The notes below the pieces were generated by a model that searched no databases, was not told where the DNA came from, and saw only the letters and a list, made by a program, of their open reading frames with translations. From contig PFMD01000024.1 in assembly GCA_002784945.1 (NCBI GenBank), positions 17,858 to 81,857 on the forward strand: a stretch of DNA of 64,000 bases. Direction: 5' to 3'. Numbering within the stretch: position 1 is the stretch's first letter; every line of letters starts with the position of its first letter. Shown in pieces: positions 5,750 to 59,200 of the stretch. Both the position numbers and the translations under genes were made by a program. This stretch comes from Candidatus Kerfeldbacteria bacterium CG_4_10_14_0_8_um_filter_42_10 (GTDB lineage: Bacteria > Patescibacteriota > Patescibacteriia > UM-FILTER-42-10).

Positions 5750-6502
5750 TTATTTTTGCTTTCTAGCCGCTTCCAGGTAGCTGCAGTAATCGCAGCCCGG
5801 AGCCGCTTGGGGCGGGGCTTTTTTATTCAAACATTTGTGAATATCCACTATTGTCTTTTCTACCCAGGAATCATTGCCTTCGTAAGCGATTAAAGTAACG
5901 TCAAATTCCAGCTTGCCATCGAACGCTTCTTTGTCCGCTCGGCCATTGCAGTAGACAAAGTAACCGGTGTTAGAGACAGGATAGCCGTTCTGTCTGAGCA
6001 GCCACTGGTAAACCTCTATCTGTCTTTTGTAGCTGTCTTGCCAATCCTGATCCAGCTCTTTAATTTCTTCCTTTTTAGCGGTGGCTTTATAATCCACCAC
6101 GATATATTCTCCCTTGGAATTTTGCCAAAGATCGTCGATTGCGCCAAAAATCAGAAGATTGGTAGGTGCATGCAAATATTGGATACCGGTGAAATTATGC
6201 CGCCATTGATCCAAATCTTCATGGGGAATGGGAATGGCATCAATCCCGTATTTTTCCATTAAGGGGTGCTGGGTCCCTTGGGCGCGGTGAACATCGAATT
6301 CCTGCTTTAAAAGGGTATCCACCGCCGCGTTTAAATTAAAAGGATACGAAGGCGGCCGGCCCACTCCCCTGACCCGGTCCAAATAAAAGCAGCGCGGGCA
6401 TTCCAAAAACAGATCGATCTTGGAACGCGACACTTTGAACGGTTCCGGAGAATGCGGGCGGTACAGATTGCTTTTGCGGTTAGAGTTGTAGTATTGGGAC
6501 AT
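5750..6502 (-). CDS. PD-(D/E)XK nuclease superfamily protein, Cas4/RecB-like with Cys cluster
   Basis: 250 aa; N-terminal CPRC, central VVDYKA (D..EXK-like), C-terminal CDYCSY: the Cas4/AddB-nuclease Fe-S cysteine pattern. Confidence 0.6.
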   Translation of the reverse strand: MSQYYNSNRKSNLYRPHSPEPFKVSRSKIDLFLECPRCFYLDRVRGVGRPPSYPFNLNAAVDTLLKQEFDVHRAQGTQHPLMEKYGIDAIPIPHEDLDQWRHNFTGIQYLHAPTNLLIFGAIDDLWQNSKGEYIVVDYKATAKKEEIKELDQDWQDSYKRQIEVYQWLLRQNGYPVSNTGYFVYCNGRADKEAFDGKLEFDVTLIAYEGNDSWVEKTIVDIHKCLNKKAPPQAAPGCDYCSYLEAARKQK

Positions 6503-6605
6503 AAGTTACTTTTTAAGTGACTTCATTATAGCTGGTTTTAGGTAGAAATGAAAACCGCGGGAGAAATGGATGCCAATCTCTAATTACTAATATCTTCAGC
6601 CTAAG

Positions 6606-6627
6606 GCTGATCCGCCTTTGGCGGAAA
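6606..6627. repeat. Partial copy of the 28-nt palindromic repeat (GATCCGCCTTTGGCGGAAA)
   Basis: Matches the core of the in-frame repeats at 28011..28038 and 43355..43382. Confidence 0.5.
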
Positions 6628-6721
6628 TTTCTAATCAATTTCTAATGATTCAAATCCCAATGTCCAAAACCCTGCTGATTGTTTGATAATGAACAAGGAT
6701 AGTAAAATAAGCAAAAACAGC

Positions 6722-6885
6722 ATTGGGGTCTGGGGCGACTCTAAGCCAAAAAAAGAAACAGGAGTAGTAATTGGCGCCAAAGCGCATAGTCGCCCCAGCA
6801 GTCCCTTCGACTTCGCTCAGGACAAGTTTGGTTCTTTTGCTGCCAAAAGAACAAGAGCCCAATAGTGGGCAAAATAAAAAACACT
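6722..6885 (+). repeat. Structured ~165-bp repeat, copy A
   Basis: ~85-90% identical to reverse complement of 22930..23093 apart from a 24-nt indel; contains internal hairpins TGGGGCGACT...AGTCGCCCCA and GTTCTTTTG-CTGC-CAAAAGAAC. Confidence 0.75.
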
Positions 6886-6925: not shown

Positions 6926-7957
6926 TTACGGCTGTAAAATGTCTTCGGTTTGCCCGTCGACGGAAATAACTACGCTTTCCACTGTAGGAAACTGTTTCAG
7001 AGTTTCCGTAATTTGGGATCGGATGAACGTTACTAGGCAGGCCCCGCCTACTTGAAATTGCAACTGATTGTTAAAATCCGCTTTCGCCACACCATTTTCA
7101 ATGGTCAGACTTTTAATTTCTACTCCCTGAGGTAAAGTAGTTTTAAACCCCTGCTCTTTTTCCGTTTCAGTCGGCCCTTTCAAAAGTTCGACCAAGGCCG
7201 CTCGCGCCACTGCGGGAGTTTTCCAAATCTTTCGCTCTACTGGAAAAACTTTACTGCAATCAACTGCCGGATTCTGTTGATTATTATCAAAATAGACCTG
7301 AATTTTAGTGGTCTCGGTTAAATCAAATTTAACGGGGATGATTAGCTGATCATTATTAGCTGTAAGACCAGAAGGATTGTTTTTTTCTAAAGTCAGCGTT
7401 CCTTGATCGGAGACCGGCACCGCAAATTCCAGCTGGGCGGTAAAAGGGACAAATTCTTCAGTCATCCAACCCTGTGGTGAGCCTGCCGAACCATTGGACT
7501 GTGCCTGGGCAATGGCAGTGCCTAATTCTTTGCCGTTTGCATCCGTAATTGTTATTGGAAAATCTCCTTCAAAAAACCAACTTCCTCTGGCTCTTCCGGA
7601 AATTTCTAAAGGACTGGCAACGGACGCATTAGGCCTGGGATTATCCACTTGGATTAGGTCGGTCTTTTCCAGCTCATTCCCGATATTCTTGGTGAAAGTG
7701 CGGCCGTCGGCTGTTCGGCATTGTTCCGGATAAATTTCCATTACTATATTCCCCGCGGCGACACAATCATCAAAATTGTCAATTACCGGCCCGCAACCGG
7801 TGGCAGGCATAGCCGCGGTGGGATTGCCGTGTTTGACCCACTGATTATTTTCGCAAAGCCAGTTATCTTCATCACCGCCAATGACAAATCTTAAAACGAA
7901 TACTGCCGCTAAGACAAAGACAATTACTAAAATAATGTTGCGAAGTTGTTTGGACAT
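6926..7957 (-). CDS. Secreted GerMN-domain protein
   Basis: 343 aa; N-terminal signal/TM; C-terminal LVELLKGPTE...GVAKADFNNQ...GGACLV resembles GerMN domain. Confidence 0.5.
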   Translation of the reverse strand: MSKQLRNIILVIVFVLAAVFVLRFVIGGDEDNWLCENNQWVKHGNPTAAMPATGCGPVIDNFDDCVAAGNIVMEIYPEQCRTADGRTFTKNIGNELEKTDLIQVDNPRPNASVASPLEISGRARGSWFFEGDFPITITDANGKELGTAIAQAQSNGSAGSPQGWMTEEFVPFTAQLEFAVPVSDQGTLTLEKNNPSGLTANNDQLIIPVKFDLTETTKIQVYFDNNQQNPAVDCSKVFPVERKIWKTPAVARAALVELLKGPTETEKEQGFKTTLPQGVEIKSLTIENGVAKADFNNQLQFQVGGACLVTFIRSQITETLKQFPTVESVVISVDGQTEDILQP

Positions 7958-7968
7958 AATGATTTTTG

Positions 7969-8385
7969 TTAATGATTAAAATATTTTATCAAGTATTGAT
8001 GGATGCTCGCGGGTAGAAGGCGCGATTTCGGAATCGCGCTTACGGCTAACCAAGTAATGGAGATGTGGCTTTCCTGGCATTTTATTTTCTCAGGATTCAC
8101 GGTTTTTAAAGTGACTTCGTATAACAAATTTATTTCGTGGTGATTTTCTCCGCGCCACTTAAAAAAATTTTCGAATGTTTCCATGAACCGAGAGGTTTTC
8201 ACTACTGCTCCAACTTCCTCCTTAATTTCTCTTTTTAGACATTCTTCCAATGTCTCGCCGTATTCCAAATGCCCCCCGGGCAAATAATGAATTGGCGGCT
8301 GATCGTTGGAAACGCATAATAAAATTTTATCGCTGTTTACGATAATCGCTCTTAAGATTATTTCGATATTTTTAACGGGTTTCAT
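7969..8385 (-). CDS. Nudix hydrolase (MutT-like)
   Basis: 138 aa; Nudix box GGHLEYGETLEECLKREIKEEVG. Confidence 0.75.
   Translation of the reverse strand: MKPVKNIEIILRAIIVNSDKILLCVSNDQPPIHYLPGGHLEYGETLEECLKREIKEEVGAVVKTSRFMETFENFFKWRGENHHEINLLYEVTLKTVNPEKIKCQESHISITWLAVSAIPKSRLLPASIHQYLIKYFNH
8016..8043. repeat. GC-rich hairpin motif GAAGGCGCGATT-TCGG-AATCGCGC, related to 44571..44598
   Basis: 24/28 nt match to the 28-nt perfect palindrome downstream of the clp gene; lies inside the 3' end of the Nudix CDS (encodes SAIPKSRLL). Confidence 0.45.
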
Positions 8386-11250: not shown

Positions 11251-11515
11251 CCAAAGTCGCGGATTTCTTTTTTCTAAGATGTAATACTACAAAACAGGTG
11301 ACACAATAAACAACGGTTACTCCAGCCAGATACCAAGCCATTTTGGTCCAATCGGTGTAAAATCCCATTTCACCGTACTCCTCGCCGGTTATGGGATCAA
11401 TTTTATGATATTCCGTAATTGACCGGTTGTAAAAGCTAAGAAAAACCGTGGCAATAATTATTATCCATCCTGTGAAAATTAGGACAATTTTTTTCATATT
11501 AATTTCACCCTCCAA
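11231..11515 (-). CDS. Small membrane protein (2 TM)
   Basis: 94 aa, two hydrophobic helices; overlaps neighbouring genes by a few nt in operon-like fashion. Confidence 0.4.
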   Translation of the reverse strand: MEGEINMKKIVLIFTGWIIIIATVFLSFYNRSITEYHKIDPITGEEYGEMGFYTDWTKMAWYLAGVTVVYCVTCFVVLHLRKKKSATLDEAKKK

Positions 11516-12146
11516 AATCCTTTAATTCCATGCTAGGATCTTCTAACAGCTCAATCTGATCATCTTGCACCATAATCGCCTGCTGGTCCGTAAGCAATTT
11601 AGCCGGATATTTCGCCGCCTGTATTTTTGGCTGGATAATCTGCTCTTCTTCTCGCTTATAATGAGCCAAGATTAAAAAGGGAACCAGATTCATTGCGGTA
11701 AAATCGGTGACTCCGTGACGGTTAAACTTTTTGGGATTCCTCCAAGTGGCCGTCTCAATGGTCGGGCAGGCTACGTAAGCGCCGGCGCTGGAGCCGCAGT
11801 ATACTCCCCCTCTTTCCAGAAATTCTTTCAGCACTTGTTCAAACCCGCTCTCTCGAATACATTTAAGCAGAAAATAGGAATTGCCGCCCAGCATATTGAT
11901 AGCATCCTTGTCTTTCAAAATTTCCCGCAACTCATTGGGGTTTTTTCCTTCGATATCAATATCCTCAAAGTCCCATCCCAATTTCCGCATACGAGTGACA
12001 TGTTTTTGAATATAAGCCGTGTCAGGCACGCTTTTTCCGGCAGTGGTAATATAAGCCCATTTGATTTGATCGCGGGGCTTATCAAAAATTTCGTATTTCC
12101 CGTCAGTAATGTAGGTGCCGCGGGAAGCGAGAAGAAGTTTTTTCAT
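11505..12146 (-). CDS. Peptidase S51 family (dipeptidase E-like)
   Basis: 213 aa; GGNSYFLL and GSSAGA nucleophile-elbow motifs typical of PepE/cyanophycinase family. Confidence 0.7.
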   Translation of the reverse strand: MKKLLLASRGTYITDGKYEIFDKPRDQIKWAYITTAGKSVPDTAYIQKHVTRMRKLGWDFEDIDIEGKNPNELREILKDKDAINMLGGNSYFLLKCIRESGFEQVLKEFLERGGVYCGSSAGAYVACPTIETATWRNPKKFNRHGVTDFTAMNLVPFLILAHYKREEEQIIQPKIQAAKYPAKLLTDQQAIMVQDDQIELLEDPSMELKDFGG

Positions 12147-22929: not shown

Positions 22930-23093
22930 ATTAAAAATTTTCCATTTCTGACTATTTTTTGCCCCCAGGGCTCTTGTTCTTTTGACAGCAAAAGAACCAA
23001 AACTGCTGGGGCGACTAATGCGCTGTAGCGCCAATTGCCGTTCCTACTTCTTTTTTTGGCTTAGAGTCGCCCCAGACCCCAGCGTCCTTTGGG
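22930..23093 (-). repeat. Structured ~165-bp repeat, copy B (inverted relative to copy A)
   Basis: Reverse complement aligns to 6722..6885 at ~85-90% identity; same internal hairpins. Confidence 0.75.
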
Positions 23094-23382
23094 TTTATAT
23101 CTCTATGTTTACTCGACCATCAAGGGATCCGGCGAACATTGGAAAAATTTAACTAGAATTTGGAGTTAAGAAGGAACGTTCCCCGAAAGGAAAATTTAGC
23201 ACCGTTCAAACCCCACATAGGTGGGTGAGTTTGCTAAATTAGTGACGATGAATCCTAAATTCTCTAAATTTTTCCAGCGAGCCAGTTCTTAGCGCCACAT
23301 TTTGTCTAAAAAGGTGGCGAGGAAGTTTGGTTAAAAGTGGATTCTTCATCCTAAATAGCTTGCATAAAAAAACAACAATTGA

Positions 23383-27649: not shown

Positions 27650-29185
27650 ATGTCCAGTAAAGACCAAATAGTCCAGCAGTTAAAAAAACAGATTGAAAAT
27701 TTCAAAACAGAGGCTACTTTAGAAAAAGTGGGAACCGTTGTAGAAGTGGGCGACGGCATTGCTAAAATATCCGGGCTTTCCGATTGCATGTCGCAGGAAA
27801 TGTTAGAGTTCGAAAACGGCCAGTTCGGAGTCGCCCTGAATTTAGAAGAAGATAACGTTGGAGCGATAATCTTGGGCGATTATTTGGGAATCGAAGAAGG
27901 TCATAGCGTCAAGACCACCAAGAGGATATTGGAAGTGCCGGTCGGCGAAGCGGTGATTGGCCGGGTGGTTAATCCTTTAGGCCAGGCTTTAGACGGTAAA
28001 GGTGAAATATCCGCCCAAGGCGGATCCGCCTCTGGCGGAAAGTCCTCACTTTTTTATCCGGTAGAAAAAATCGCTCCCCGGGTCATTACCCGAGAAGAAG
28101 TGAATACTCCCTTGCAAACCGGCATTAAAGCGATTGATTCCATGATTCCGATTGGCCGGGGACAAAGGGAATTGATTATCGGCGATCGACAAACCGGCAA
28201 AACGGCTTTGGCGATCGATACGATTATCAACCAGAAGCAGGAAAAAGTAATCTGCATCTATGTTGCCATTGGCCAAAAAGAGTCTAAAATAGCAAAAATT
28301 GTCAATAAACTCCAAGAAGAAGGTGCAATGAAATATACCACGGTAGTGTTGGCCAGCGCTTCGGATCTCGCCTCGCTTTCTTATATCGCCCCTTATGCCG
28401 GCTGTGCCATGGGAGAATACTTTATGGATCAAGGGAAGGATGTTTTGCTGGTTTACGACGATCTTTCTAAACATGCCGTGGCTTATCGCGAAATCTCGCT
28501 GCTTTTAAGAAGACCCCCCAGCCGAGAAGCCTATCCCGGTGATATTTTCTATCTCCATTCCCGGCTTTTGGAACGATCCGCCAAAATGAACAAGAAATAT
28601 GGCGGTGGCTCTTTAACCGCTTTGCCGATTATCGAAACTCAGGCCGGCGATGTTTCCGCTTATATTCCTACCAATGTAATTTCCATTACCGACGGCCAGA
28701 TTTTTCTGGAATCGGATTTATTCTATAAAGGAATCCGCCCCGCTTTAAATACCGGCATTTCGGTTTCCCGGGTCGGCTCGAAAGCCCAAATTAAGGCGAT
28801 GAAAAAAGTGGCCGGCAAGCTTAAGCTGGCCATGGCCCAATATCGCGAGTTGGAAGCTTTCGCCCAGTTCGGGTCGGACTTGGATGAAACCACCCAACAA
28901 CAGTTGAATTTGGGCCGAAGATTGACTGAAATTCTTAAGCAAGGACAGTACGTACCAATGTCCGTAGAGCATCAGGTGGCTATTTTGTATGCTGTCACCA
29001 ACGGCCAGCTTAATGACATTAAAGTGGAAGAAATTGCCAAATTCGAAGAAGAATTCCATAAATATTTAAGCACCAACGGTTTAGAAGTCCTTAAGAAGAT
29101 AAAGGAAAAACAAGAATTAGATGATGCTACTGAAAATCAGTTGAAAAAAGTCATTGAAGATTTTAAAAGAACCTTAGCTTCTTAG
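27650..29185 (+). CDS. atpA: F0F1 ATP synthase subunit alpha
   Basis: 511 aa; GDRQTGKT P-loop and the full alpha-subunit signature; contains the in-frame 28-nt palindromic repeat (AQGGSASGG) at 28011..28038. Confidence 0.95.
28011..28038. repeat. 28-nt palindromic repeat CCGCCCAAGGCGGATCCGCCTCTGGCGG inserted in-frame in atpA
   Basis: Identical 28-mer (reverse complement) at 43355..43382 in glyQS; encodes AQGGSASGG and lengthens a loop relative to E. coli AtpA. Confidence 0.8.
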
Positions 29186-29258
29186 CTTATTAGCCTTTTA
29201 GTCACACCGCACCCGCGACCTAAAAAGCTAAGAAGCTACTTCCTAACACCTAAAACAA
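29186..29258. repeat. A/T-rich AAGCTA inverted-repeat element between atpA and atpG
   Basis: CTTAGCTTATTAGCCTTTTAG ... CTAAAAAGCTAAGAAGCTA; family shared with 12840 and 37425. Confidence 0.5.
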
Positions 29259-30211: not shown

Positions 30212-31615
<1,404 letters not shown>

Positions 31616-31673
31616 AAAGCGCAAATACGCATTCGCGCTTTCTGATTCCCAATAACAATTACCATACTAACTT

Positions 31674-37424: not shown

Positions 37425-37500
37425 TTTAGGAGTTAGCTTTTTAGCTTGTTAGACATTTTTAGATAACCTAAAAAGCTAATAAGCTAAGAAGCTAAATAAC
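37425..37500. repeat. A/T-rich AAGCTA inverted-repeat element
   Basis: TTAGCTTTTTAGCTTGTTAG ... CCTAAAAAGCTAATAAGCTAAGAAGCTAAAT. Confidence 0.5.
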
Positions 37501-42719: not shown

Positions 42720-42744
42720 AGGTTTTGTTTATCACCTTTACAGT

Positions 42745-42788
42745 GGATGGTTGTAGGCGAATTTGGCCAAATTCGCCTACAACCATCC
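42745..42788. repeat. 44-nt perfect palindrome GGATGGTTGTAGGCGAATTTGG|CCAAATTCGCCTACAACCATCC
   Basis: Lies between the glyQS stop and the M16 peptidase start; no T-run follows. Confidence 0.6.
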
Positions 42789-42813
42789 CATTTTAATGAG
42801 GTAACAAATAATA

Positions 42814-44154
42814 TTAGATTTTTTCCTTTAAGTAATTAACCAATTCTTCGATTTTTACCCTCTCCTGCTTCATAGTGTCTCTATCTCGGACAGTCACCGC
42901 TTTGTCTTCTAAAGAATCAAAATCCACGGTGACGCAATAGGGCGTGCCAATTTCATCCTGTCGGCGGTAGCGTTTTCCTATGGAAGCAACTTCATCGTAA
43001 GCCGCCATGAAATTGGGTTGGATTTCTTGATAAATTTCTTTAGCCACTTTTACCAGATTTTCTTTGCGGGACAAAGGCAGTACCGCCACTTTATATGGAG
43101 CCAAATCCTTATGGAGGCGCAGAACTACCTCTTCTTCTTTAATGCTTTCGGTAGTGGTGGTGCGGCCGCCCTTTACTTCGTCATAAGCATCCAGCAGAAA
43201 GGTCAAAGCGGCCCGGTCTACTCCGAATGACGGTTCTATGACGTAAGGAGTGATTTTCTGGTTTGATTCCTGATCATGGTATTCCAGCTTGTGCTGTTTC
43301 AAATCATAATCGGTTCGGTTAGCAATACCCAAAAGTTCCGCCCATCCTTTCTCTCCGCCAGAGGCGGATCCGCCTTGGGCGGAAAAAGGAAATTTGTATT
43401 CAATGTCAACCGTTTCTTTAGCGTAATGAGCCAGTTCTTTTTTCTCTTGAGGACGTTTCTTGATATTTTCTTTTTTAATACCTAAATCTAAAAACCATTG
43501 ATAGGATTGCTCCACCCAATAATCAAACCATTTTTTGTCTTCTTTCGGATCGATAAAATACTCCAGTTCCATCTGTTCAAATTCCCGCGAGCGGAATATA
43601 AAGTTGCCGGGCGTAATTTCATTGCGAAAAGCTTTGCCCACTTGAGCAATGCCAAAGGGCAGCTTTTGGCGCATGGTATCAACAATGTTTTTGAAATTGA
43701 CGAAAATCCCTTGAGCGGTTTCCGGGCGGAGGTAAGCAGCCGAAGCAGAATTTTCTACTGGGCCCACAAAAGTTTTAAACATTAAGTTGAACTCTTTTGC
43801 TTTTTCTAATTCTTTCTTACCGCAATTAGGACACTGACCATTTAAATCTTCTTCCTTAAAACGCTGATGACAACTTTTGCATTCCACCAACTTATCAGCG
43901 AATCCTTTTAAATGCCCTGAAACCTCCCAAGTTTTGGGATTCATTATAATTGCCGAATCCAACCCCACCACATCTGCCCTTTCCTGCACAAACTTTTTCC
44001 ACCACATTTTTTTGATGTTATTTTTCAACTCCACGCCCAAAGGACCGAAATCCCAAAACCCCTGAAGTCCGCCGTAAATTTCCGAGGAAGGAAAAATAAA
44101 CCCTCTTCTCTTCGATAAACTTACAATCTTTTCCATTAAATTTTGTTGAAGCAT
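42814..44154 (-). CDS. glyQS: Glycine--tRNA ligase (homodimeric class II)
   Basis: GlyRS N-terminus MEKIVSLSKRRGFIFPSSEIYGG; start set at MLQQ (track ORF extends 10 codons further, into the GIY-YIG element IR); carries the in-frame 28-nt repeat at 43355..43382. Confidence 0.9.
   Translation of the reverse strand: MLQQNLMEKIVSLSKRRGFIFPSSEIYGGLQGFWDFGPLGVELKNNIKKMWWKKFVQERADVVGLDSAIIMNPKTWEVSGHLKGFADKLVECKSCHQRFKEEDLNGQCPNCGKKELEKAKEFNLMFKTFVGPVENSASAAYLRPETAQGIFVNFKNIVDTMRQKLPFGIAQVGKAFRNEITPGNFIFRSREFEQMELEYFIDPKEDKKWFDYWVEQSYQWFLDLGIKKENIKKRPQEKKELAHYAKETVDIEYKFPFSAQGGSASGGEKGWAELLGIANRTDYDLKQHKLEYHDQESNQKITPYVIEPSFGVDRAALTFLLDAYDEVKGGRTTTTESIKEEEVVLRLHKDLAPYKVAVLPLSRKENLVKVAKEIYQEIQPNFMAAYDEVASIGKRYRRQDEIGTPYCVTVDFDSLEDKAVTVRDRDTMKQERVKIEELVNYLKEKI
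43355..43382. repeat. 28-nt palindromic repeat inserted in-frame in glyQS (encodes AQGGSASGG)
   Basis: Reverse complement is identical to 28011..28038 in atpA. Confidence 0.8.
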
Positions 44155-44158
44155 ATTT

Positions 44159-44443
44159 TTACTTTTTTCTACTCGTCCTCTCAACTTTTTGAGAAAACAA
44201 TTGGTTCTTTAAAGTTCTATAAATCCAATTCTTACCCCAACCAGTTTTTAAAAATTTTTCTCTTTGCGCTGCATCATGCTTATTCCGATGAGCTTCATAA
44301 TACAACAATATAAATGGATGCCTCGACTGCGTAGAAAAATTTTCACCATTATTATGTGAGTTAAACCTCTTACGTAGATCATTTGTCATACCGATATACA
44401 TATTTCCATCTTTTATACTCTGAAGTATATAGACGTACCACAT
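44159..44443 (-). CDS. GIY-YIG nuclease family protein (copy 1)
   Basis: 94 aa; WYVYIL...GNMYIGMTNDLRKRFNSHN; 65% identical over the shared region to the 47868..48083 copy. Confidence 0.75.
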   Translation of the reverse strand: MWYVYILQSIKDGNMYIGMTNDLRKRFNSHNNGENFSTQSRHPFILLYYEAHRNKHDAAQREKFLKTGWGKNWIYRTLKNQLFSQKVERTSRKK

Positions 44444-44531: not shown

Positions 44532-44570
44532 AATGAATAAATTATACCAATTTTACAGTTTTTACACAAA

Positions 44571-44598
44571 GAAGGCGCGATTCGCGAATCGCGCCTTC
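44571..44598 (-). terminator. 28-nt perfect palindrome GAAGGCGCGATTCG|CGAATCGCGCCTTC downstream of the clp gene
   Basis: 14-bp stem; TTTGTGTAAA follows on the minus strand; related to the 8016..8043 motif. Confidence 0.4.
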
Positions 44599-44618
44599 TA
44601 TAATCCATCGTTAATATC

Positions 44619-51180: not shown

Positions 51181-54100
51181 CTAAAACGGCAATCCAATCT
51201 GACCCACCCAGGCAAAGGTTTCTTCTAAGTTAGAAATAACCAGCTGGAGGAAGGATTCTCTTTTGCGGGAGGTTAAAACCGAATAGGAACCGGATTTGGA
51301 TTCATTTCCGGCTTTATCAACGGCCACTACCCGAAAGCGATAGGTCTTGGCCGGAGCCAGTTCCGAGATTACCACTAAATGATCCATGACCAGTTCGGCG
51401 TTTGCTTCCGTCTGTTCGGTGAATTCCGTGCCGGAAAGGCCTACGCCAAATTCTGCCTGAGAAGTGGTTGGTTCGTTGGTTTTCCAATTGACGATGATCT
51501 GGACCGAGGAGGTTTCCCCCGCTCCAATCGTGTTGGATTCGGACTGGATTCCCGTGATTACCGGCGGGGTGGTATCTTCCAGCGTAGTAAAAGTATTCAC
51601 TTCGGATACGGCCTGGTAGCCGAACTGGTCAAAGCCTTTGGTTTTGAACTGGTAGGCGGTAGCATCTTCCAAACCGAATAGGAGAATGGAGTGGGTAGTG
51701 ACCAGGGCGGAGTTGCCTTGAGTTTTAGGGGCAATGGAAGAGTTGTAGTACTCTACTTCCGAAGTGGTAAGAACATTAGTGGTCCAGCTGATTTCGGTCT
51801 GTCCTTCGGATTTGTTTTCAAAGGATATGGAGAGTACTTTCGGAAAAGTCAGAGTAGTAAAGGAATAATCGCTTGATTCCGGGGAATTGCTGGTAGAATC
51901 CAGTCCGGTGGGCCTAAAGTGGTAGGTGGTGCCATCAGTAAGACTGGCAAGCTTCATAGTATGAGTAGTGGTGAGCGAGCCGGAGGTATCGGCCACCGTA
52001 AAGCCATAATCCACGGCAGTTCCATAGTCTAGCTTGGTGGTAGTGGGTTTGTTAGTGGTCCAGGTGATCAGAGCATCAAAGAGCTTAACGTCTGATACCA
52101 CCACTTCTGAGACACGGGGGGCTTCTAGAGTGGTGAAAGTAGCAATGCTGGAGAGAGCGACGTTGCCGTCTTGGTCTCTGGATCGAATCCGATAATAATA
52201 AGTAGTTTTCGATTCTAGTCCTTCCAAAACAACTGTATGTTTTTCACTTTCTTCAATCGTTCCCTGTTCTTCGCCAAATTCTTGAGTTAAACCATATTCT
52301 ACATGCGAATCAGCATTTCTTTCCGTTTCCCAAGTTACGTTTGCGGAAAAGGAATCCGGCGTTACAGTTGGTCCAGAGGTAATCTCTGGAGGGGTAGTAT
52401 ATCTTCCTTCGGGAATGTCTGAAACAGTTGTAGAAGCAGCGGAGGTAGCTCCGGCCGTGTCTTTAGCCTTAACCTTGTAATAGTAGGTTTCCGAGTTATC
52501 CAGACCGACATCCAGGTAGCCGTAGGAAGTGATTTCTGCAATAGATTCAAAGTGATCATCATCATCAACGGACCGTTCGATAATATAGGTGATTTCTTCC
52601 CCATCGGAAGCACTGCTTTGGGTTACTTGTTCCCAAACTAGGGTAATGGAATAAATTTCCGCTTCCCGATTGGAAGAATCGGTAATAATCAATCCGGTAG
52701 GAATCGAGGGGGCTTCAGTCTCCGCCTCAAAATCAATCGAAGCGTAGTTGGAGTAATTAATGTTGTTGTCTTCGTCAATCGCCACCACATAGAAAGTGTT
52801 GGTACCCTGCTGGGTAGCATAGGGGCCGGGGCCGACATATTCGTTGGTGGTATAAGAAACATTTTCTTCCGTAGGAGTGGAGTTGATGGAATAGAAATAG
52901 CCCTGGACCGTCACCCCTTCATCTAAGGGCGGGTCCCAGGTGAACTTAAAGGAGTTTTCCGTGTTGTATTCCGGAGTAACAGCAAGGTTGGTGGGAGCAG
53001 ATAAAGCATCAGCGGTGGTAAAGGTGTAATCGGAAGAATAGCCGGTATTATCATCTTCATCGGTCCATCTCGCCCGGTAATGGTAGGTGGTGTCAGGTTC
53101 CAGGGCAATGAGGGTTACTTCATGGGAAGTGACAAAGTCTTCCTGGCCCTGTTCCTCGCCATAGGAGGTGGCAGTACCGTATTCCACAAAAGAGGAGCCT
53201 TCCCGATCAGTGAGCCATTCTACTGTGGCGGATTGGATCCGGGTGGTTACTCCGGGAGTGCCAACTAAATTAGGCGGTACGTAATATCTTCCCCGGGCCT
53301 GCTCGCAGACTGCCGTGGAGGCGGCGGAGACGGCATTGGCGTTATCCGCTGCTTTGATCCGGTAACAATACCAGGCATTCTGGGTCAGACCGGTATCTAA
53401 GTAACCGGTGCCGGCCACTTGGGATATCTCTGAGTAGTTAACCCCTTCATCTTCGCTTCTTTCCACGTTGTAATGATCAATGCCGGAACCAGTGTTTTCC
53501 GGCTCATCCCAGGTAACAGTTAAGGAGAATTTGTCCTGGGCCCGGTTGGAGGTGTCAGTGACAATTACGCCTACAGGGATACCGGGAGCAGAAGTGTTAG
53601 CGGTGAATTCTATGGAAGAGTAAGCGTTGTAGTTGACGTTGCCGGCCGCATCTTCCGCTACTATGTAAAAAGTGTTGGTGCCCTGCTGGGTAGCGTAGGG
53701 GCCGGGGCCGATAGAGGTAGCAGTGGTAGTGGAGGTATTGAGAGCGGTAGGCAGGGCATTGATGGAATAGTGGTAGCTGGCAATAGAACCGCTGTAGATG
53801 GCCGGAGCACTCCAGGAAAAAGTGAAAGAGTTGGTAGAAGTTGGTTCGGCAGGGTCTACGGCTAAATCTTGGGGTTCGGAAGGAGCCGAGCCGTTGTAAT
53901 AGTAGTTTACTTGGGCATAGGAAGAAGCGAGGTTTCCGGCCTCATCTTTGCTTCGGACATAGAAAACATTAACGTTTTCCTGGTAGGATTCGATGCCAGA
54001 GACGGAGGTGCCGGAGATACAGGTTTCGACGAATCCTTCTTCGCCTGTTTTGTAGCAGTATTCCCCTATTCCGGAATCATCATCTGATCCGGCGGACCAA

Positions 54101-56214
54101 AGGAAGGTGAAGGAATTAACGTTGGAATATCCGGCCGGGTCGGCAGCGGCGATGCCGGGGGAAGTAGGAGCGGTTGAGTCGAATTTGTAGATAAAACCTT
54201 GGTAGGTAGTAGTTACGGTATTACCCACTAAATCGTAGGCTTTTAGGCGAAGATAGTAAGTGTTGCCGGAAGTCAGAGAAGAAAAAGTGCTATTATCCTC
54301 ATTATGGCTGGAACCGTCGTCTTCGGGATCGGCAGAATTATTTAGACCGAAATACACGTAATAGCCGGCCACTCCGGAATCAGGATCAGTAGCGCCTGAC
54401 CAGGTGCAGTAGATATTGTCATCGTTGTACCAGGTATCAGTGGTCAGTTCGGTACCCATGCCCGAATCGGTATAACAGTGAGCCGAGGTAACATTAGAGC
54501 TAGGAGGATCCACATCTTTGAGATAATAGATGGTGATATCGGAAAGAGTGGGGTTGGAAACGCCATCTGTTTGGGTCAAAGTGGCTCTAACTTGAAGATA
54601 CCGATAGGTTTTGTAGGTACTTTGAGGAAACTGGGTTTCTAAGGTAGCGGCAGAAACGCCATATCTGCCGCTGTTGGCATCCTCGTCCGTCATATCATAC
54701 CAAGAAGTCCAGGAAGAACGGTTAGTGGATAACCTCATTTCAAAATCGATATTAGTGTTGGCTGGTATAGTTACCGAGGATTCAAGAGCATTGCCATTGC
54801 CATTATCGCTCCAGCCGCCATTCCAAATAACATCTATGGCATTAGCGTCAGAAGGTGAAGTCCAGGTACCGGAAGATTGAAGCGTGGCGGCTTCGATTCC
54901 TACGGATGTGGAAGGTTCAGGCGATGAATATTTCCTTATCAATTCTTTGCCCGGATAGTTGGTGGTCACGTAGCCGTAATTGCTGTAGAGATCGGCTATT
55001 TCGCCAGTGGTAAGGGTGTGACTATAAACACGCGTCTGATCTATCTTTCCATACCAGTCATATGCGACGCCCGATGACATTGTAAAATTATTGGCAGCGG
55101 GATTGGTATAAGTAGCGGCACCGCAAAGCGAATTATCATAATAAAGATTCGTATTTCCAGTATCAGTAGCAACATTAAAAACATAATGATGAAAATTACC
55201 ATCCGCTGCGTTTGCCGGGATCGTGCAAAATGAATTCGTATCGCCATTCCAAGTATTTAAGCTGATCTTACCATTATAGAAAAATGCGTCCGGTCCGGCG
55301 CCATTCGGTCCAGTTCGCCAAAGCATGCCGTAAGGGTTCGGCGGTACGGCATCAACTACCCACATGGAAATAGCAACTGCCGTCCCAACCGCCGTACTGG
55401 TCGTAATATAATTATTATTGCCTGCAAAATTCCTGGCATTACCGAACTTTCCCGTATCAACAGTCGTGCCGGTAGGCGTTCCTGTGTAATTATTTCCCGA
55501 TGTATCTGCAACATTTCCAGAAGCTTCATCCAAGGTCCACGCGCCAATTACTCCGGTAATCTCCCTAATAAACGTATTCGCTATTGATGATTGACTGGCA
55601 GCCGAACCGCTTCCATAATATAAATAAATACTTTTTGAACTGGAAGCAGGGATTGAAGGCACTTCCACCCAGATTTTAGAAGAAGCGTTATTGCAAGGAC
55701 CATCCAGCCAAAAATCCAAGTTGGTTGAATCATCAGCATCCTTGAACCTGATATCATCACAGTCGCCTTGCATCTTACTGGCCAATATTAAAGCAGCGGT
55801 ATCTAAAGTTAAAGATACTTGATAATTAGTTAAAGTATTAGAGTTACTGCTGTTATTAATAGTAAGGGTTCTTTTGTATTGAGTATTATCCGGCCCGGCT
55901 GAACCAGCCAGTCTCACTTCCCCGCCGCTGATACTTTGGGATACTGCACTAGAGAAGGTTCCTTGATCAAACTGGGCTTGAGTGGTAATGGATTTGAAAT
56001 CCTGAGTAGGAGCGGCTTTAGTGATTGGTCCCTGGTAAAGGAAGACGGCGAGAGCGAGAATCAATAAAACAGAAATACTGGTTTGGATCCAGTATTTTTG
56101 GCGGTAAATCTGAAACTTTTTTTGATATACGCTAAGCGTGGCTAAAGCAGCTTTTAGCTTTCGCTTTAAATCCTTCTCATTGCCACTTTGTTTTTTTTCT
56201 TTCTCCTTCTTCAT
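51181..56214 (-). CDS. Giant membrane-anchored surface protein (DUF2341-like + LamG-like + multiple FN3 domains)
   Basis: 1677 aa; N-terminal TM anchor; DUF2341-like and concanavalin/LamG-like modules; more than 8 FN3-like repeats; C-terminal ~1000 aa closely paralogous to the next gene. Confidence 0.8.
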   Translation of the reverse strand: MKKEKEKKQSGNEKDLKRKLKAALATLSVYQKKFQIYRQKYWIQTSISVLLILALAVFLYQGPITKAAPTQDFKSITTQAQFDQGTFSSAVSQSISGGEVRLAGSAGPDNTQYKRTLTINNSSNSNTLTNYQVSLTLDTAALILASKMQGDCDDIRFKDADDSTNLDFWLDGPCNNASSKIWVEVPSIPASSSKSIYLYYGSGSAASQSSIANTFIREITGVIGAWTLDEASGNVADTSGNNYTGTPTGTTVDTGKFGNARNFAGNNNYITTSTAVGTAVAISMWVVDAVPPNPYGMLWRTGPNGAGPDAFFYNGKISLNTWNGDTNSFCTIPANAADGNFHHYVFNVATDTGNTNLYYDNSLCGAATYTNPAANNFTMSSGVAYDWYGKIDQTRVYSHTLTTGEIADLYSNYGYVTTNYPGKELIRKYSSPEPSTSVGIEAATLQSSGTWTSPSDANAIDVIWNGGWSDNGNGNALESSVTIPANTNIDFEMRLSTNRSSWTSWYDMTDEDANSGRYGVSAATLETQFPQSTYKTYRYLQVRATLTQTDGVSNPTLSDITIYYLKDVDPPSSNVTSAHCYTDSGMGTELTTDTWYNDDNIYCTWSGATDPDSGVAGYYVYFGLNNSADPEDDGSSHNEDNSTFSSLTSGNTYYLRLKAYDLVGNTVTTTYQGFIYKFDSTAPTSPGIAAADPAGYSNVNSFTFLWSAGSDDDSGIGEYCYKTGEEGFVETCISGTSVSGIESYQENVNVFYVRSKDEAGNLASSYAQVNYYYNGSAPSEPQDLAVDPAEPTSTNSFTFSWSAPAIYSGSIASYHYSINALPTALNTSTTTATSIGPGPYATQQGTNTFYIVAEDAAGNVNYNAYSSIEFTANTSAPGIPVGVIVTDTSNRAQDKFSLTVTWDEPENTGSGIDHYNVERSEDEGVNYSEISQVAGTGYLDTGLTQNAWYCYRIKAADNANAVSAASTAVCEQARGRYYVPPNLVGTPGVTTRIQSATVEWLTDREGSSFVEYGTATSYGEEQGQEDFVTSHEVTLIALEPDTTYHYRARWTDEDDNTGYSSDYTFTTADALSAPTNLAVTPEYNTENSFKFTWDPPLDEGVTVQGYFYSINSTPTEENVSYTTNEYVGPGPYATQQGTNTFYVVAIDEDNNINYSNYASIDFEAETEAPSIPTGLIITDSSNREAEIYSITLVWEQVTQSSASDGEEITYIIERSVDDDDHFESIAEITSYGYLDVGLDNSETYYYKVKAKDTAGATSAASTTVSDIPEGRYTTPPEITSGPTVTPDSFSANVTWETERNADSHVEYGLTQEFGEEQGTIEESEKHTVVLEGLESKTTYYYRIRSRDQDGNVALSSIATFTTLEAPRVSEVVVSDVKLFDALITWTTNKPTTTKLDYGTAVDYGFTVADTSGSLTTTHTMKLASLTDGTTYHFRPTGLDSTSNSPESSDYSFTTLTFPKVLSISFENKSEGQTEISWTTNVLTTSEVEYYNSSIAPKTQGNSALVTTHSILLFGLEDATAYQFKTKGFDQFGYQAVSEVNTFTTLEDTTPPVITGIQSESNTIGAGETSSVQIIVNWKTNEPTTSQAEFGVGLSGTEFTEQTEANAELVMDHLVVISELAPAKTYRFRVVAVDKAGNESKSGSYSVLTSRKRESFLQLVISNLEETFAWVGQIGLPF

Positions 56215-56229
56215 TATTCTTACAAAAAC

Positions 56230-59200
56230 CTAGAATGAACCGCCGATCCTTCCAATCCAAGAGAAAGTTTCCTCCAGATTAGAAATAATCAGCTGTAAAA
56301 ATGATTCTCTTTTTCGGGAGGTCAACACGGTATAAGCGCCGGATTTAGTGGTATTTCCCGCTTTATCTCGGGAAACCGCTCTAAAGCGGTAAGTTTTAGC
56401 CGGAGCAAGATCTGAAATAACCACTAAATGATCCATGACCAGTTCGGCGTTTTCATCGGTTTGTTCGGTAAATTCGGTTGCTCCCAAGCCTACTCCGTAT
56501 TCCACCTGAGAAGTAGTCGCCTCATTGGTTTTCCAAGAGATGATGATTTGCACTTTGGATTCTTCACCGGCGCCAATCGTGTTTGATTCCGACTGAATTC
56601 CGCTTACCACTGGCGGAGTGGTATCTTCTAAGGTAGTGAATTCATTCTCATCGGAAACCGCTTCATAGCCGAATTCATCTGATCCTCTCACTTTAAACTT
56701 ATAGAGAGTGGCGTCTTCTAATCCATAAAGAAGAATAACATGCTCTTTCACCATGGCGGTATTACCTTGCGTTTTGGGAGGAATATTTTCACTGTAGTAT
56801 TCCACTTCAGAAGTAGTTGGCACATTAGTGGTCCAAGTCACTTCCGTCTGTCCTTCGGACTGGTTGCGGGAAGAAACGGTTAGAACTTCAGGAAAGGTTA
56901 GAGTGGCAAAGATATAATCATCCGAAGCAATCGGATTGCCGTTGCGGTCTTCACCGCCGATTCTTAAGTGATAAGTAGTGCTGTCAGTTAAACCTTCCAG
57001 CTTAACGGTATGAGTCAGGGCGTAGGATCCGGAAGTATCAGTATAAGTCAAGCCGTAATTAGCCGTAGTGCCGTATTGAATCACGGCCGTTGATTCTTTG
57101 TTAGTTTCCCAACTGATAATTGCATCATACAGTTTAACATCACTGATTTTTACCTCTAATACTCTGGGCGCTTCTAAAGTGGTAAAGCTGTCAATCTCGG
57201 AATAAGCGATATTCTCATCAACGTCAATACTCTTTATTCGATAATAATAGGTGGTTTCCGATTTTAACCCCGTAACTTCAATCTCATGTTTTGCGATTAA
57301 ATCAGCGGTACCTTGTTCTTCCGTTAAATCATTGGCCTTTAAACCAAACTCGACGAAAGAAGAAGCGATTCTTTCCGTTTCCCAAACGATGTCAGCGGAA
57401 AACGAATCCGGCGTGGCGACAGGTGATACGGTAATGGCCGGCGGCTGGGTATAGCGGCCTTCAGGTACTTCTGAAACTATGTCAGTAGCTTTGGATGCCG
57501 CACCGGCTTTGTCTTCTGCAACAACTTTATAGAAATATTCTTTAGAGCTATCAAGACCGGTGTCTAAAAATCCGGTTGAGGTAAATCTGGCAATTTCTGA
57601 AAAACTGTCTTTTTCCCCAACTTTGCGATAAAGAGAATAGTAAACTATTTCAGTTTCATCTTCTGAAGATGACGTTTCATATCCTTCGGGCGGGTCCCAA
57701 GTAATGGTAATGGAATAACGCTTGGCATCACGATCAGAGGAATCGGTAATAGTCACAGCTTGTGGAGGTCCCGGAGGTTCGGTCTCGGCTTCGAAGTCAA
57801 CCGATGCATAATTGGCATAATTGATATTGCCGGAGTCGTCCACCGCCACCACATAAAAAGTATTGATTCCTTGCTGAGTGGCAGCGTCGTAAGGACCAAT
57901 ATAAGTATTGGCGGTAAAAGAGACATTGTCTTCAGTGGGAATATTATTCACCACATAAAAATATCCGGCTACGGTAACACCCTCGTCAGTGGGAGCGCCC
58001 CAGGTAAACTTGAAGCGATTAACAGTGTTGCATTCCGGGTCAACCTCTAGATTGATAGGAGCAGATGGCGCGCCATTGGTAGTAAAAGTGAAATCACTGG
58101 AATAACCGATGTTACCGTCAATATCCACCCATTTGCAGCGGAAATGATAGGTCGTTTCCGGAGTTAAATCAGTCAAAGTAACTTCATGCTCACTAACCAT
58201 ATCAGATGTTCCAGTTTCATTACCGTAGGAAGCTGTTTCCCCATATTCCACAAAAGAAGTCGCCGGATGAGGAATAATGTTTCCTTCTCTATCCTGATCA
58301 TCAAGCGTTAGCCATTCAACCACCGCAGAACGAATTCTGGTTTGAACGCCCGGCTGACCGCTCATAGAAGGGGCGCTCTTAAACTTTCCTTCCGGCTTCA
58401 TTTCTACTAAAGCAGAGTTACCCGAAGCGGCATTTCCCGGACCAATCGCTCTGGTGAAGTAAGTATAAGTAATGGTATTATCAAGGCCCGTATCTAAATA
58501 ACCCAAAGTGGAAGTAGAGGCAATTTTAGTGTAATTATCAGGAGGATCATTTACGGTAGAAGGATTCTGGCAATCCTCTTCACAACGGTAGATATTATAC
58601 AAATCAACTCCCGCTCCTACATCATCCGGTTCATCCCAAGTCAGAGTAATAGAATAACGGCTGGTGGATCGATCAGATGAGTCTGTAGCCTGAATGCTGG
58701 CAGGTACTCCCGGCGCAGTAGAATCAAAAATATAGGTTGCGGTAACATAATTACTGTAATCAATATTATTGATTAAGTCAGTAGCAACGATATAAAGAGT
58801 ATTAGTACCCTGCTGGGTAGCGGCGGAGAACCCTGACAATAAGCGATTGGTTGTCTGGGTATCAGTAGTCCAACCGCCATCCGGACTTGGGGTAGTGCTG
58901 CCGCCTGTATTAGTCCCGCAATTGACAGCGTTTGGCAACTCGTTAATGGTATAACAGTATCTTAAAATATCACTGGCTTCACAAGGCGTTTGTCCTAAAC
59001 AGGTGTCCGGTAAACTCCAGGAAAATGAAAAAGTGTTATTGTTGGTTTGAGATGTTGGTGAAACCACGACGCTCGCCGGAGCGGTAGGAGCTTCGCCGGC
59101 ATAATAGTAAGTGGTGGAAGCGTAACTGGAAGAATAATTACCCGCCCCATCTTTCGCCCGAACATAAAAGGTATTACCTCTGGATTGATAAGCTTGAATG

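Follow-up and report, generated by a model that had tools for sequence, protein, structure and literature searches.

The window analysed here is a stretch of 64,000 nucleotides (nt) from Candidatus Kerfeldbacteria bacterium CG_4_10_14_0_8_um_filter_42_10 (assembly GCA_002784945.1, contig PFMD01000024.1), in which a 30-nt palindromic sequence interrupts the housekeeping genes atpA and glyQS in frame and recurs, as a variant, in an intergenic spacer. This sequence is probably a miniature, non-autonomous mobile double hairpin, defined by its structure and belonging to a widespread family. Its exact gain or loss, its patchiness among orthologs, its dispersal, the survival of copies in reading frame 0 and the decay of others together agree with a miniature mobile element that is filtered by selection on the host proteins.

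A sequence-only reading of this DNA had reported a 28-nt repeat in atpA, its reverse complement in glyQS, and a partial copy at 6606..6627. The 28-mer is indeed present exactly once on each strand, at 28011-28038 (+) and 43355-43382 (-), and no further match was found in the window at up to three mismatches (0 expected in 100 shuffles). The identity is real, but it extends one base further on each side, the true shared sequence being the 30 nt TCCGCCCAAGGCGGATCCGCCTCTGGCGGA (coordinates in Table 1). Likewise, the glyQS copy does lie on the opposite strand, but because glyQS itself is encoded on the minus strand, the two copies run in the same direction with respect to the coding strand, along which they are 30/30 identical. 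AtpA and GlyRS each read the same 10 residues from them, in agreement with the earlier claim of a common peptide. The third copy was not partial: it is a full-length 30-nt variant (TCAGCCTAAGGCTGA followed by TCCGCCTTTGGCGGA) with a compensated C>A / G>T stem change in its first hairpin, located in a 423-nt spacer between two minus-strand open reading frames (ORFs), 5750-6502 and 6926-7957. A structure-only scan for two adjacent GC-rich hairpins, each with a 6-bp stem and a 3-nt loop, recovered exactly these three copies, A, B, and C, from the window (0.05 expected in Markov shuffles), and no additional copy was present in the 6.7 kb past its left end. The two host proteins are each 100% identical to a database entry, P0001 for AtpA and P0121 for GlyRS; the latter has 440 amino acids (aa), which implies a start at 44136.

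The unit of the element is a 15-nt hairpin, TCCGCC-NNN-GGCGGA, with a 6-bp stem and a 3-nt loop (TCCGCCNNNGGCGGA in search notation), and its usual form is a 30-nt head-to-tail doublet with GGATCC at the centre. On either strand, loop 1 reads RRA (purine-rich) and loop 2 TYY (pyrimidine-rich). Folded as DNA, the window copy TCCGCCCAAGGCGGATCCGCCTCTGGCGGA is lowest in energy as two hairpins (-12.5 kcal/mol, z=-4.4), while as RNA one long hairpin with an internal loop is slightly favoured (-19.8 kcal/mol, z=-3.9); copy C forms two hairpins in both cases. A single long hairpin was nevertheless rejected, since the 14 variant copies in all the sequence examined contained six Watson-Crick compensated pairs within units and none across them, which identifies each 15-nt unit as an autonomous hairpin. 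Examples are TCAGCC..GGCTGA in the window, TTCGCC..GGCGAA (locus L119), CCCTCC..GGAGGG (L052), and CCCGCC..GGCGGG (L090). An origin as a perfect palindrome, in which a unit is joined to its own reverse complement, was also rejected: among 123 non-redundant copies, perfect palindromes were in weak excess only (24 vs 16 expected, P=0.03), and the middle bases of loops 1 and 2 were complementary in 29 copies vs 49 expected, a deficit that excepts the 24 fully palindromic 30-mers. The majority of copies are asymmetric, one strand having G..T and its complement A..C. Copies in genes preferentially show the A..C form (SA[KEQ]GGSASGG) on the sense strand, by 26 to 9 (P=0.006); as the bias was not significant among intergenic asymmetric copies (10 vs 5), selection and mechanism are not separable as its cause. 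A known RNA family was ruled out as the identity of the element by Rfam searches, in which no family reached the gathering score anywhere in the window and none had E<=1 in the surroundings of copy C or of the composite repeat of Kiritimatiellae described below. The doublet contains four GGCGGA sites, in both orientations; GGCGGA is the sequence that EciI, a type IIS enzyme, recognises, and the GGATCC/GATC centre is a site of the BamHI/Dam type.

The boundaries of the element were read from three pairs of filled and empty sites at the DNA level. In atpA, GAA ATT|AAG of an empty relative (L124) stands against GAA ATA|30 nt|AAG in the window, and in glyQS, CCT TTT|GAG AAA (L208, 79-82% aa identity) stands against CCT TTT|30 nt|GAG AAA. 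The third pair comes from a GH57 glycosidase of Omnitrophota, with ACC TTC|AAA AAC (L214) against GCA TTC|30 nt|AAA AAC (L081); these two proteins are 94% identical and their genes differ at only 24% of four-fold degenerate sites, so the insertion or loss must be recent. In all three pairs, which cover two phyla, the borders are unambiguous, exactly 30 nt are involved, and the target is not duplicated. Within protein clusters of 90% identity, no filled/empty polymorphism was found.

Among orthologs, the occurrence of the insert is patchy. The lineage specificity expected from the sequence-only reading holds for the nearest relatives: AtpA P0002-P0040 and GlyRS P0123 (L208) lack exactly these 10 codons, the nearest of 120 AtpA homologs (83-75% identity) are all without the insert, and most of the 120 are empty. 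It does not hold beyond them, as the same sites are filled in other lineages. A sister Kerfeldbacteria genome has both the AtpA and the GlyRS inserts, and more distant AtpA lineages are filled at exactly this position, the GEI|K boundary. They comprise P0085 and P0084 together with a clade formed by P0049, P0098, P0061, P0075, P0041, P0110, P0086, and P0088. Some of the copies in these lineages have decayed, for example FAKGESASGG and SAIGGHASG. In a neighbor-joining tree of AtpA, the insert of the window is nested among insert-free sisters; the insert is present at this one boundary in at least four separate lineages, a distribution that requires at least four gains or many exact losses. At the GlyRS site, FPF|(E/D)K, empty sites are interspersed with full copies and with the point variants SSKGGSASGG, SAKGGPASGG, and SGGAGSASGG; P0129 and P0141 have an exact half unit, SAKGG, and still smaller remnants and larger, nested inserts occur among the empty sites too. 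The same spectrum of full, half, and decayed copies was observed at the GH57 site of Omnitrophota, KAF|K. A metagenome scan for GlyRS relatives returned 80 loci, of which 45 were readable at the site, and none of these had the element or an SA.GG-type insert; they were distant sequences (51-61% identity) from other phyla, mostly reading FPF-GW-ELEG.

Three local peculiarities of these sites were recorded. AtpA sequences with the insert have uncharged residues (KSSL, KTLT, KSTT, or KTQT) where K-[TS]-[DE]-K otherwise follows the site, which, judged from the sequences, suggests co-adaptation of the local loop. In the GlyRS gene of L211 (8150-8210, GCA_018825385.1), unit 1 is split by a different GC-rich hairpin of 33 nt, GCCTGCC CGCCAGTGCTATGGCAC GGCAGGC, and the protein across the split unit reads SSHGACPPVLWHGRRGSASGG; by its sequence, a member of another hairpin family has been inserted here in frame, nested within the element. 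One of the metagenome GlyRS loci, L136, has a different 10-residue insert at the site, STKGRSTDDG.

The DNA of intact inserts is far better conserved than that of the genes around them. Compared with the window, the AtpA inserts of L121, L123, and L122 match at 30/30, 29/30, and 28/30 positions, in genes that differ at 67-72% of four-fold sites. Between the window and L121, differences at such sites number 0/9 inside the element and 106/149 (71%) outside (P=1.4e-5). The GlyRS genes of L210 and L211, which have the derived change GCC>TCC in common, also differ at 0/9 sites inside and 71% outside (P~1e-5), and the shared change suggests common descent. The solo unit in the GlyRS gene of L209 (TCG GCC AAA GGC GGC) has drifted at two synonymous sites. 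A conserved protein loop with divergent nucleotides, the pattern named in the sequence-only reading as contrary to its claim, is thus the opposite of what was observed, near-identical DNA amid ~70% four-fold divergence. Identity across saturated lineages points to selection on DNA or RNA, repeated re-insertion, or gene conversion.

One genome per species (596 Gb) was scanned with the pattern TCCGCCNNNGGCGGATCCGCCNNNGGCGGA, in which 24 bases are specified. At least 120 loci matched, against ~0.004 expected by chance (calculated), and all the loci among the matches listed are in metagenome-assembled genomes. By record label, about half of these at least 120 loci (63) are from Patescibacteria, 12 from the Planctomycetota-Verrucomicrobiota group (Kiritimatiellae, Lentisphaerae, Verrucomicrobiota, Planctomycetes), 10 from Omnitrophota, five from Ignavibacteria/Bacteroidota, two from Chloroflexota, six from other named groups, and 11 are unclassified; a further 11 are labelled 'Gammaproteobacteria', third-party labels that are not trusted. 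The local GC content of the matches listed ranges from 30% to 70%, and some contigs reach 1.6 Mb; the 1.6-Mb contigs of Ignavibacteriota and the 70%-GC contigs of Chloroflexota cannot come from Patescibacteria. A phage vector was ruled out, as only two of 2.9 million viral contigs had the pattern and plasmids of cultured hosts and isolated phages gave partial matches at chance level only.

The copies in these genomes, all counts being of the matches listed, have a clear flank preference. In 124 copies from other genomes, the 5' flank had T at -3 in 70, T at -2 in 106, and T or C at -1 in 105, and the 3' flank had A or G at +1 in 100 and A at +2 in 96. The combination TY|RA on both sides was present in 61 of 126 copies, vs a background of 2.1%, and direct repeats of 2-7 nt at the borders were seen in merely one or two. 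Insertion into the loop of a pre-existing hairpin, an idea that came from the flanks at L075, L120, L114, L035, and GlyRS, was rejected: the proportion (35%) did not differ significantly from that at TY|RA control sites (27%, P=0.07).

Open frames of 200 codons or more contain about 60% of the listed copies (75/126). Frame 0, which reads SAxGGSAxGG, is used by 64 of the 75, a second frame (RRRIRLWR-like) by six, and the third by five. Their hosts are real genes, often essential ones, and include DnaG, RpoB, GyrA, Pol III alpha, Mur ligases, TsaD, ATP synthase, and the Asp/Lys-, Met-, Ile-, and Cys-tRNA synthetases. As its length is divisible by three and its stems contain no stop, a copy in phase 0 adds (Ser-Ala-x-Gly-Gly)x2, a peptide that, if translated as predicted, would be flexible and linker-like. 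The lengthening of a surface loop proposed in the sequence-only reading is supported by a clean 10-residue gap precisely at the insert when AtpA is aligned with a solved alpha subunit (PDB chain 9nvl_A), and by the low confidence of the inserted segments in AlphaFold models (pLDDT<50, the predicted local distance difference test). In AtpA, residues 121-130 are modelled as coil (model mean 67.9), and in GlyRS, residues 252-261 form the tip of a beta-hairpin between strands 241-248 and 265-273 (mean 69.9). These models are of moderate quality, and they support, without proving, a disordered loop.

Across the genomes compared, the doublet is present or absent as one exact block at T-Y^R-A steps, and the target is not duplicated. 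Copies in phase 0 persist in surface loops of essential proteins, AtpA and GlyRS among them, those in the other two frames are mostly purged, and dead copies decay into half units and shorter remnants. Reuse of one boundary per gene may be sufficiently explained by the requirement for T-Y^R-A in phase 0 together with the small number of tolerated loops. Movement would depend on a trans-acting enzyme that recognises both hairpins, probably on single-stranded DNA. HUH/Y1 single-stranded DNA transposases (IS200/IS605, RAYT) recognise hairpins, do not duplicate the target, and excise without scars. A 'peel-and-paste' transposase of this IS200/IS605-RAYT type is our leading candidate for the mover, a tentative one, and is ranked first because hairpin dependence, absence of target duplication, and scarless loss match its products. 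Directly after glyS in L209 lies a 208-aa ORF (11336-11962) with an HVH (HUH) motif, for which Pfam gives a faint match to Y1_Tnp; it contains a low-complexity Ala/Arg/Gly-rich insert and is not flanked by TCCGCC units.

Several observations weigh against a mobile element and against this mover in particular. No transposition intermediate, population-level filled/empty polymorphism, or mobilising enzyme was found, and Pfam profiling of 127 ORFs beside intergenic copies, in fragments of 8 kb to 64 kb, showed no enriched transposase or nuclease: GIY-YIG, in 2/127, was the only hint, and Y1_Tnp was absent from the 25 most frequent of the 161 families. The Y1_Tnp-like ORF of L209 was absent, by tblastn, from the window and the 120 loci. 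In so small an element there is no space for the guide tetranucleotides of IS200/IS605 ends or for cleavage sites set apart from the hairpins, a GT[AG]G foot as in REPs is missing, and the flank preference is symmetric (TY left, RA right), vs the one-sided target of IS608. Because the hosts are metagenome-assembled only, mis-binning may underlie some phylum labels, though Patescibacteria cannot be the source of the Ignavibacteriota and Chloroflexota contigs named above. Stems identical across phyla are unusual for non-autonomous elements, and the copy density is modest (3 per ~70 kb in the window and its left extension). Finally, intact copies show 0-1 differences at 8-9 four-fold sites in genes differing at ~70%, which is not expected of an insert that is purely selfish and decays neutrally. 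A variant of the same view is that the 15-nt module and the other short GC-rich modules that co-occur with it are substrates of an undescribed enzyme system, shared horizontally among uncultivated bacteria of groundwater and sediment, that inserts and removes them without scars at T-Y^R-A; we think this rather improbable. If true, mobile DNA would gain a new class whose members are below the size of every transposable unit now known, and linker insertions would be arising naturally and continually in essential proteins across phyla.

The strong conservation of the insert could also be read as function. The double hairpin would then be a selected nucleic-acid motif, either an mRNA stabilising or pausing structure or a protein-bound site, and the peptide a tolerated by-product. 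Nucleotide conservation beyond what the protein needs (0/9 vs 71% between the window and L121 in AtpA, 0/9 vs 0.71 between L210 and L211 in GlyRS), compensated changes that preserve each hairpin, strong folds (-19.8 kcal/mol, z=-3.9 as RNA), and identical stems in different phyla would all fit such a motif. We consider it unlikely, however, because the nearest relatives do without the insert at each of the three host sites, many lineages have copies that are broken, halved, or decayed, and the copies lie in unrelated genes and AT-rich intergenic DNA that lack a common regulatory context. Nor does Rfam hold a match, and the frame-0 filter indicates that it is the protein reading that limits survival. 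Equally slim is the chance that the insert arose rarely and then spread between orthologs by DNA uptake and homologous recombination or gene conversion, without transposition. Such exchange would explain the reuse of sites, a single boundary being used in each of AtpA, GlyRS, and GH57 over many lineages. It would agree with the uncommon loop pair CAA/TCT (5/126 listed copies, including the AGA/TTG orientation) found in separate AtpA lineages, and with the AAG TCC directly downstream in both the window and L123. A precedent is provided by the GC clusters of yeast mitochondria, which are exchanged through recombination in conserved flanks (PMC4478555). Yet the flanking codons of insert-bearing AtpA genes are no more similar than the rest of the gene, and a family that in many phyla is spread over intergenic sites and dozens of genes with no relation to one another needs non-homologous insertion, at the start at least. 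It also counts against this view that the AtpA and GlyRS copies of the window are 30/30 identical in unrelated hosts.

Two further explanations are effectively excluded. Vertical inheritance is apparent in the two Kerfeldbacteria genomes and in the AtpA clade of P0049, P0098, and P0061, but a loop inherited since the ancestry of Patescibacteria AtpA and GlyRS conflicts with the empty sites of the closest orthologs and most of the 120 homologs, with the presence of the same 30 nt in unrelated genes and non-coding DNA, and with a codon choice that is invariant where drift would be expected. The case for an artefact of assembly, sequencing, or a cloning linker (synthetic constructs use GGSASGG-type linkers with a BamHI site) is poorer still. 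All the matches listed are from metagenome assemblies and, in the papers found, GGSASGG appears only as an engineered linker; against this, the copies come from many laboratories and assemblers, long-read megabase contigs included, their flanks are always native and differ from one another, they are in frame and at orthologous positions, and they include point variants, compensated changes, and half units as well as decayed forms. A mobile double hairpin continues to be the explanation that we prefer.

Some copies in other genomes lie next to further repeats. In a Kiritimatiellae genome, the 30-mer is one end of a 195-nt composite repeat whose copies are 97% identical and which also contains the modules GTCATTCCGAGCG..GAGGAATCTC and CCCTTCGACTTCGCTCAGGGCA, the latter being the same module as in the window spacer; in L004, single TCCGCCTCTGGCGGA units adjoin the module CCCTTCGACTTCGCTCAGGGCA. 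From these sequences, several short GC-rich modules seem to be common to different phyla. Many intergenic 30-mers elsewhere lie within short heptamer tandem repeats (L059, L061, L036, L102). In L126 (390-419, IMG/VR UViG_3300037067_014859), one of the two viral contigs with the pattern, the element provides the last codons of an ORF for a group II intron-type reverse transcriptase (YADD motif).

The window contains other repeats as well. One of ~160 nt occurs on opposite strands, its copies being 79-97% identical, with GC-rich stems (GGGGCGACT..AGTCGCCCC and GGTTCTTTTGC..AAAAGAACC) and no Rfam match. The 6699-6860 copy has an extra 25-nt module, TCCCTTCGACTTCGCTCAGGACAAG, that is missing from the other and by its sequence looks like a second small insertion module. 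An AT-rich inverted repeat with TTAGCTT-like heptamers lies in the spacer between atpA and atpG and again in another spacer. Terminator-like GC hairpins of related sequence (AGAAGGCGCGATTCGCGAATCGCGCCTTCT) stand at gene ends, and a near-perfect palindrome of 76 nt separates a gene for an M16 peptidase from glyS. The two giant tandem ORFs have segments in common that are 74-76% identical, at a spacing of 5049 nt, and are therefore paralogous; their products are presumably large surface proteins.

Table 1. Coordinates of the element, its host genes, and other features (window positions unless a locus is named)
Feature	Position	Strand	Remarks
Copy A	28010..28039	+	in frame in atpA, AtpA residues 121-130; flanks GAA ATA / AAG
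Copy A, unit 1	28010-28024	+	TCCGCC-CAA-GGCGGA
Copy A, unit 2	28025-28039	+	TCCGCC-TCT-GGCGGA
Copy B	43354..43383	-	in frame in glyQS; coding-strand flanks CCT TTT / GAG AAA
Copy C	6596..6625		intergenic; TCAGCC-TAA-GGCTGA + TCCGCC-TTT-GGCGGA; family D9
atpA, F1 ATP synthase alpha subunit	27650..29185	+	511 aa; host of copy A
glyQS-type glycine--tRNA ligase (class II)	42814..44184	-	longest ORF 456 aa; host of copy B
~160-nt repeat	6699-6860 and 22968-23106	opposite strands	
25-nt module	~6806-6830		in the 6699-6860 repeat copy
AT-rich inverted repeat	29174-29250 and 37466-37495		
Terminator-like hairpins / palindrome	44570-44600, 8014-8039, 31614-31645, 42729-42804		
Two giant tandem ORFs	51181-56214 and 56230-63810	-	1677 and 2526 aa
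Kiritimatiellae composite repeat	L005 4569-4764, 6390-6585; L050 7176-7366; L004 343, 542		

If it is mobile, the element would be about the smallest transposable unit yet seen in bacteria and would pose a testable question of enzymology. In-frame 'selfish' palindromes, well known from Rickettsia, are no oddity of that single genus: essential genes, among them those for ATP synthase, aminoacyl-tRNA synthetases, RpoB, GyrA, and DnaG, carry them in Patescibacteria, Omnitrophota, and further phyla that are uncultivated. Stems identical across phyla would indicate a network of horizontal exchange among these organisms. The element creates false local similarity between unrelated proteins, perturbs phylogenomic alignments, and could confuse assemblers and gene callers. 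Its recurrent insertion points are natural maps of the tolerance of essential enzymes for a flexible linker of five or 10 residues.

No published description of the element was found in the full-text literature, a body of text that most subscription journals lie outside, in line with the earlier statement that the family is undescribed. That statement was coupled to a comparison with Rickettsia palindromic elements (RPEs), which were reportedly described by Ogata and colleagues in 2000 as lying in frame in housekeeping genes. RPEs measure ~100-150 bp and are found in Rickettsia and relatives, each family being lineage-specific; we know of no transposase for them. The comparison is apt for behaviour: here too, a palindrome would be translated in frame in housekeeping genes, lengthening loops and being tolerated at the protein surface, and is found in non-coding DNA as well, and 64 of the 75 listed copies in open frames are in frame 0 without a stop, so that they would be read through. 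In contrast to RPEs, the element has 30 nt and a 15-nt unit, about one fifth of their size, its hosts are Patescibacteria, Omnitrophota, the Planctomycetota-Verrucomicrobiota group, and others instead of Rickettsiales, its stems are identical in many phyla, and gain or loss is exact at T-Y^R-A without duplication. The size alone makes sequence homology to RPEs implausible, as judged from their description. Short palindromic repeats with coding potential inside ORFs were reportedly described by Suyama and colleagues in 2005 in Methanocaldococcus jannaschii; these are set apart, by description, as archaeal, lineage-specific, and unrelated in sequence.

Miniature inverted-repeat transposable elements (MITEs) have terminal inverted repeats, produce a target-site duplication, and are 50-500 bp long, in contrast to the 30 nt and the absence of duplication here. 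Closer in form are the double-hairpin elements and GC clusters of mitochondria, some copies of which lie in frame in coding regions. Like the element, they consist of one or two GC-rich hairpins in AT-rich DNA, occur in merged or modular arrays, and have no known mover, and the folding, within-unit covariation, and AT-rich flanks observed here agree with this class. The GC clusters of yeast mitochondria are tiny GC-rich hairpin elements that are exchanged between lineages and have putative target-site duplications (AG) (PMC4478555); that paper cites double-hairpin elements from Allomyces mitochondria (Paquin et al. 2000, as cited in PMC4478555), and a sponge study reportedly deals with repetitive hairpin-forming elements (PMC2800124). 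Whereas these are organellar, the present copies reside in bacterial chromosomes of many phyla and show no duplication.

Among bacterial elements, the repetitive extragenic palindromes (REPs) and their BIME and REPIN arrangements also form short hairpins rich in GC. They are non-autonomous, frequently occur as inverted pairs, and probably move as hairpins of single-stranded DNA; in shape the element equals a very compact REP doublet. REPs begin with GT[AG]G at the 5' foot of the hairpin, have stems of 7-20 bp, are extragenic and species-specific, and flank a gene for a REP-associated tyrosine transposase, RAYT (PMC6006769). The element, in contrast, has a TTY flank at the 5' side, a 6-bp stem, and no such foot, long open frames contain 75/126 of its listed copies, its 24 stem bases do not differ between phyla, and no association of the RAYT kind was seen near the copies. 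The miniature derivatives of IS200/IS605 (PATEs) resemble it in having a hairpin at each end, a short specific target, scarless excision, and no target duplication, and the precise empty sites without duplication described above correspond to this. Known IS200/IS605 ends require guide tetranucleotides, are cleaved at sites that lie apart from the hairpins, and have a one-sided target (PMC6006769), while the present element is nothing but two hairpins with TY|RA on both sides in 61/126 listed copies. It is best classed as an in-frame selfish palindrome that stands out by its minimal size, its scarless insertions and deletions, and its spread across phyla.

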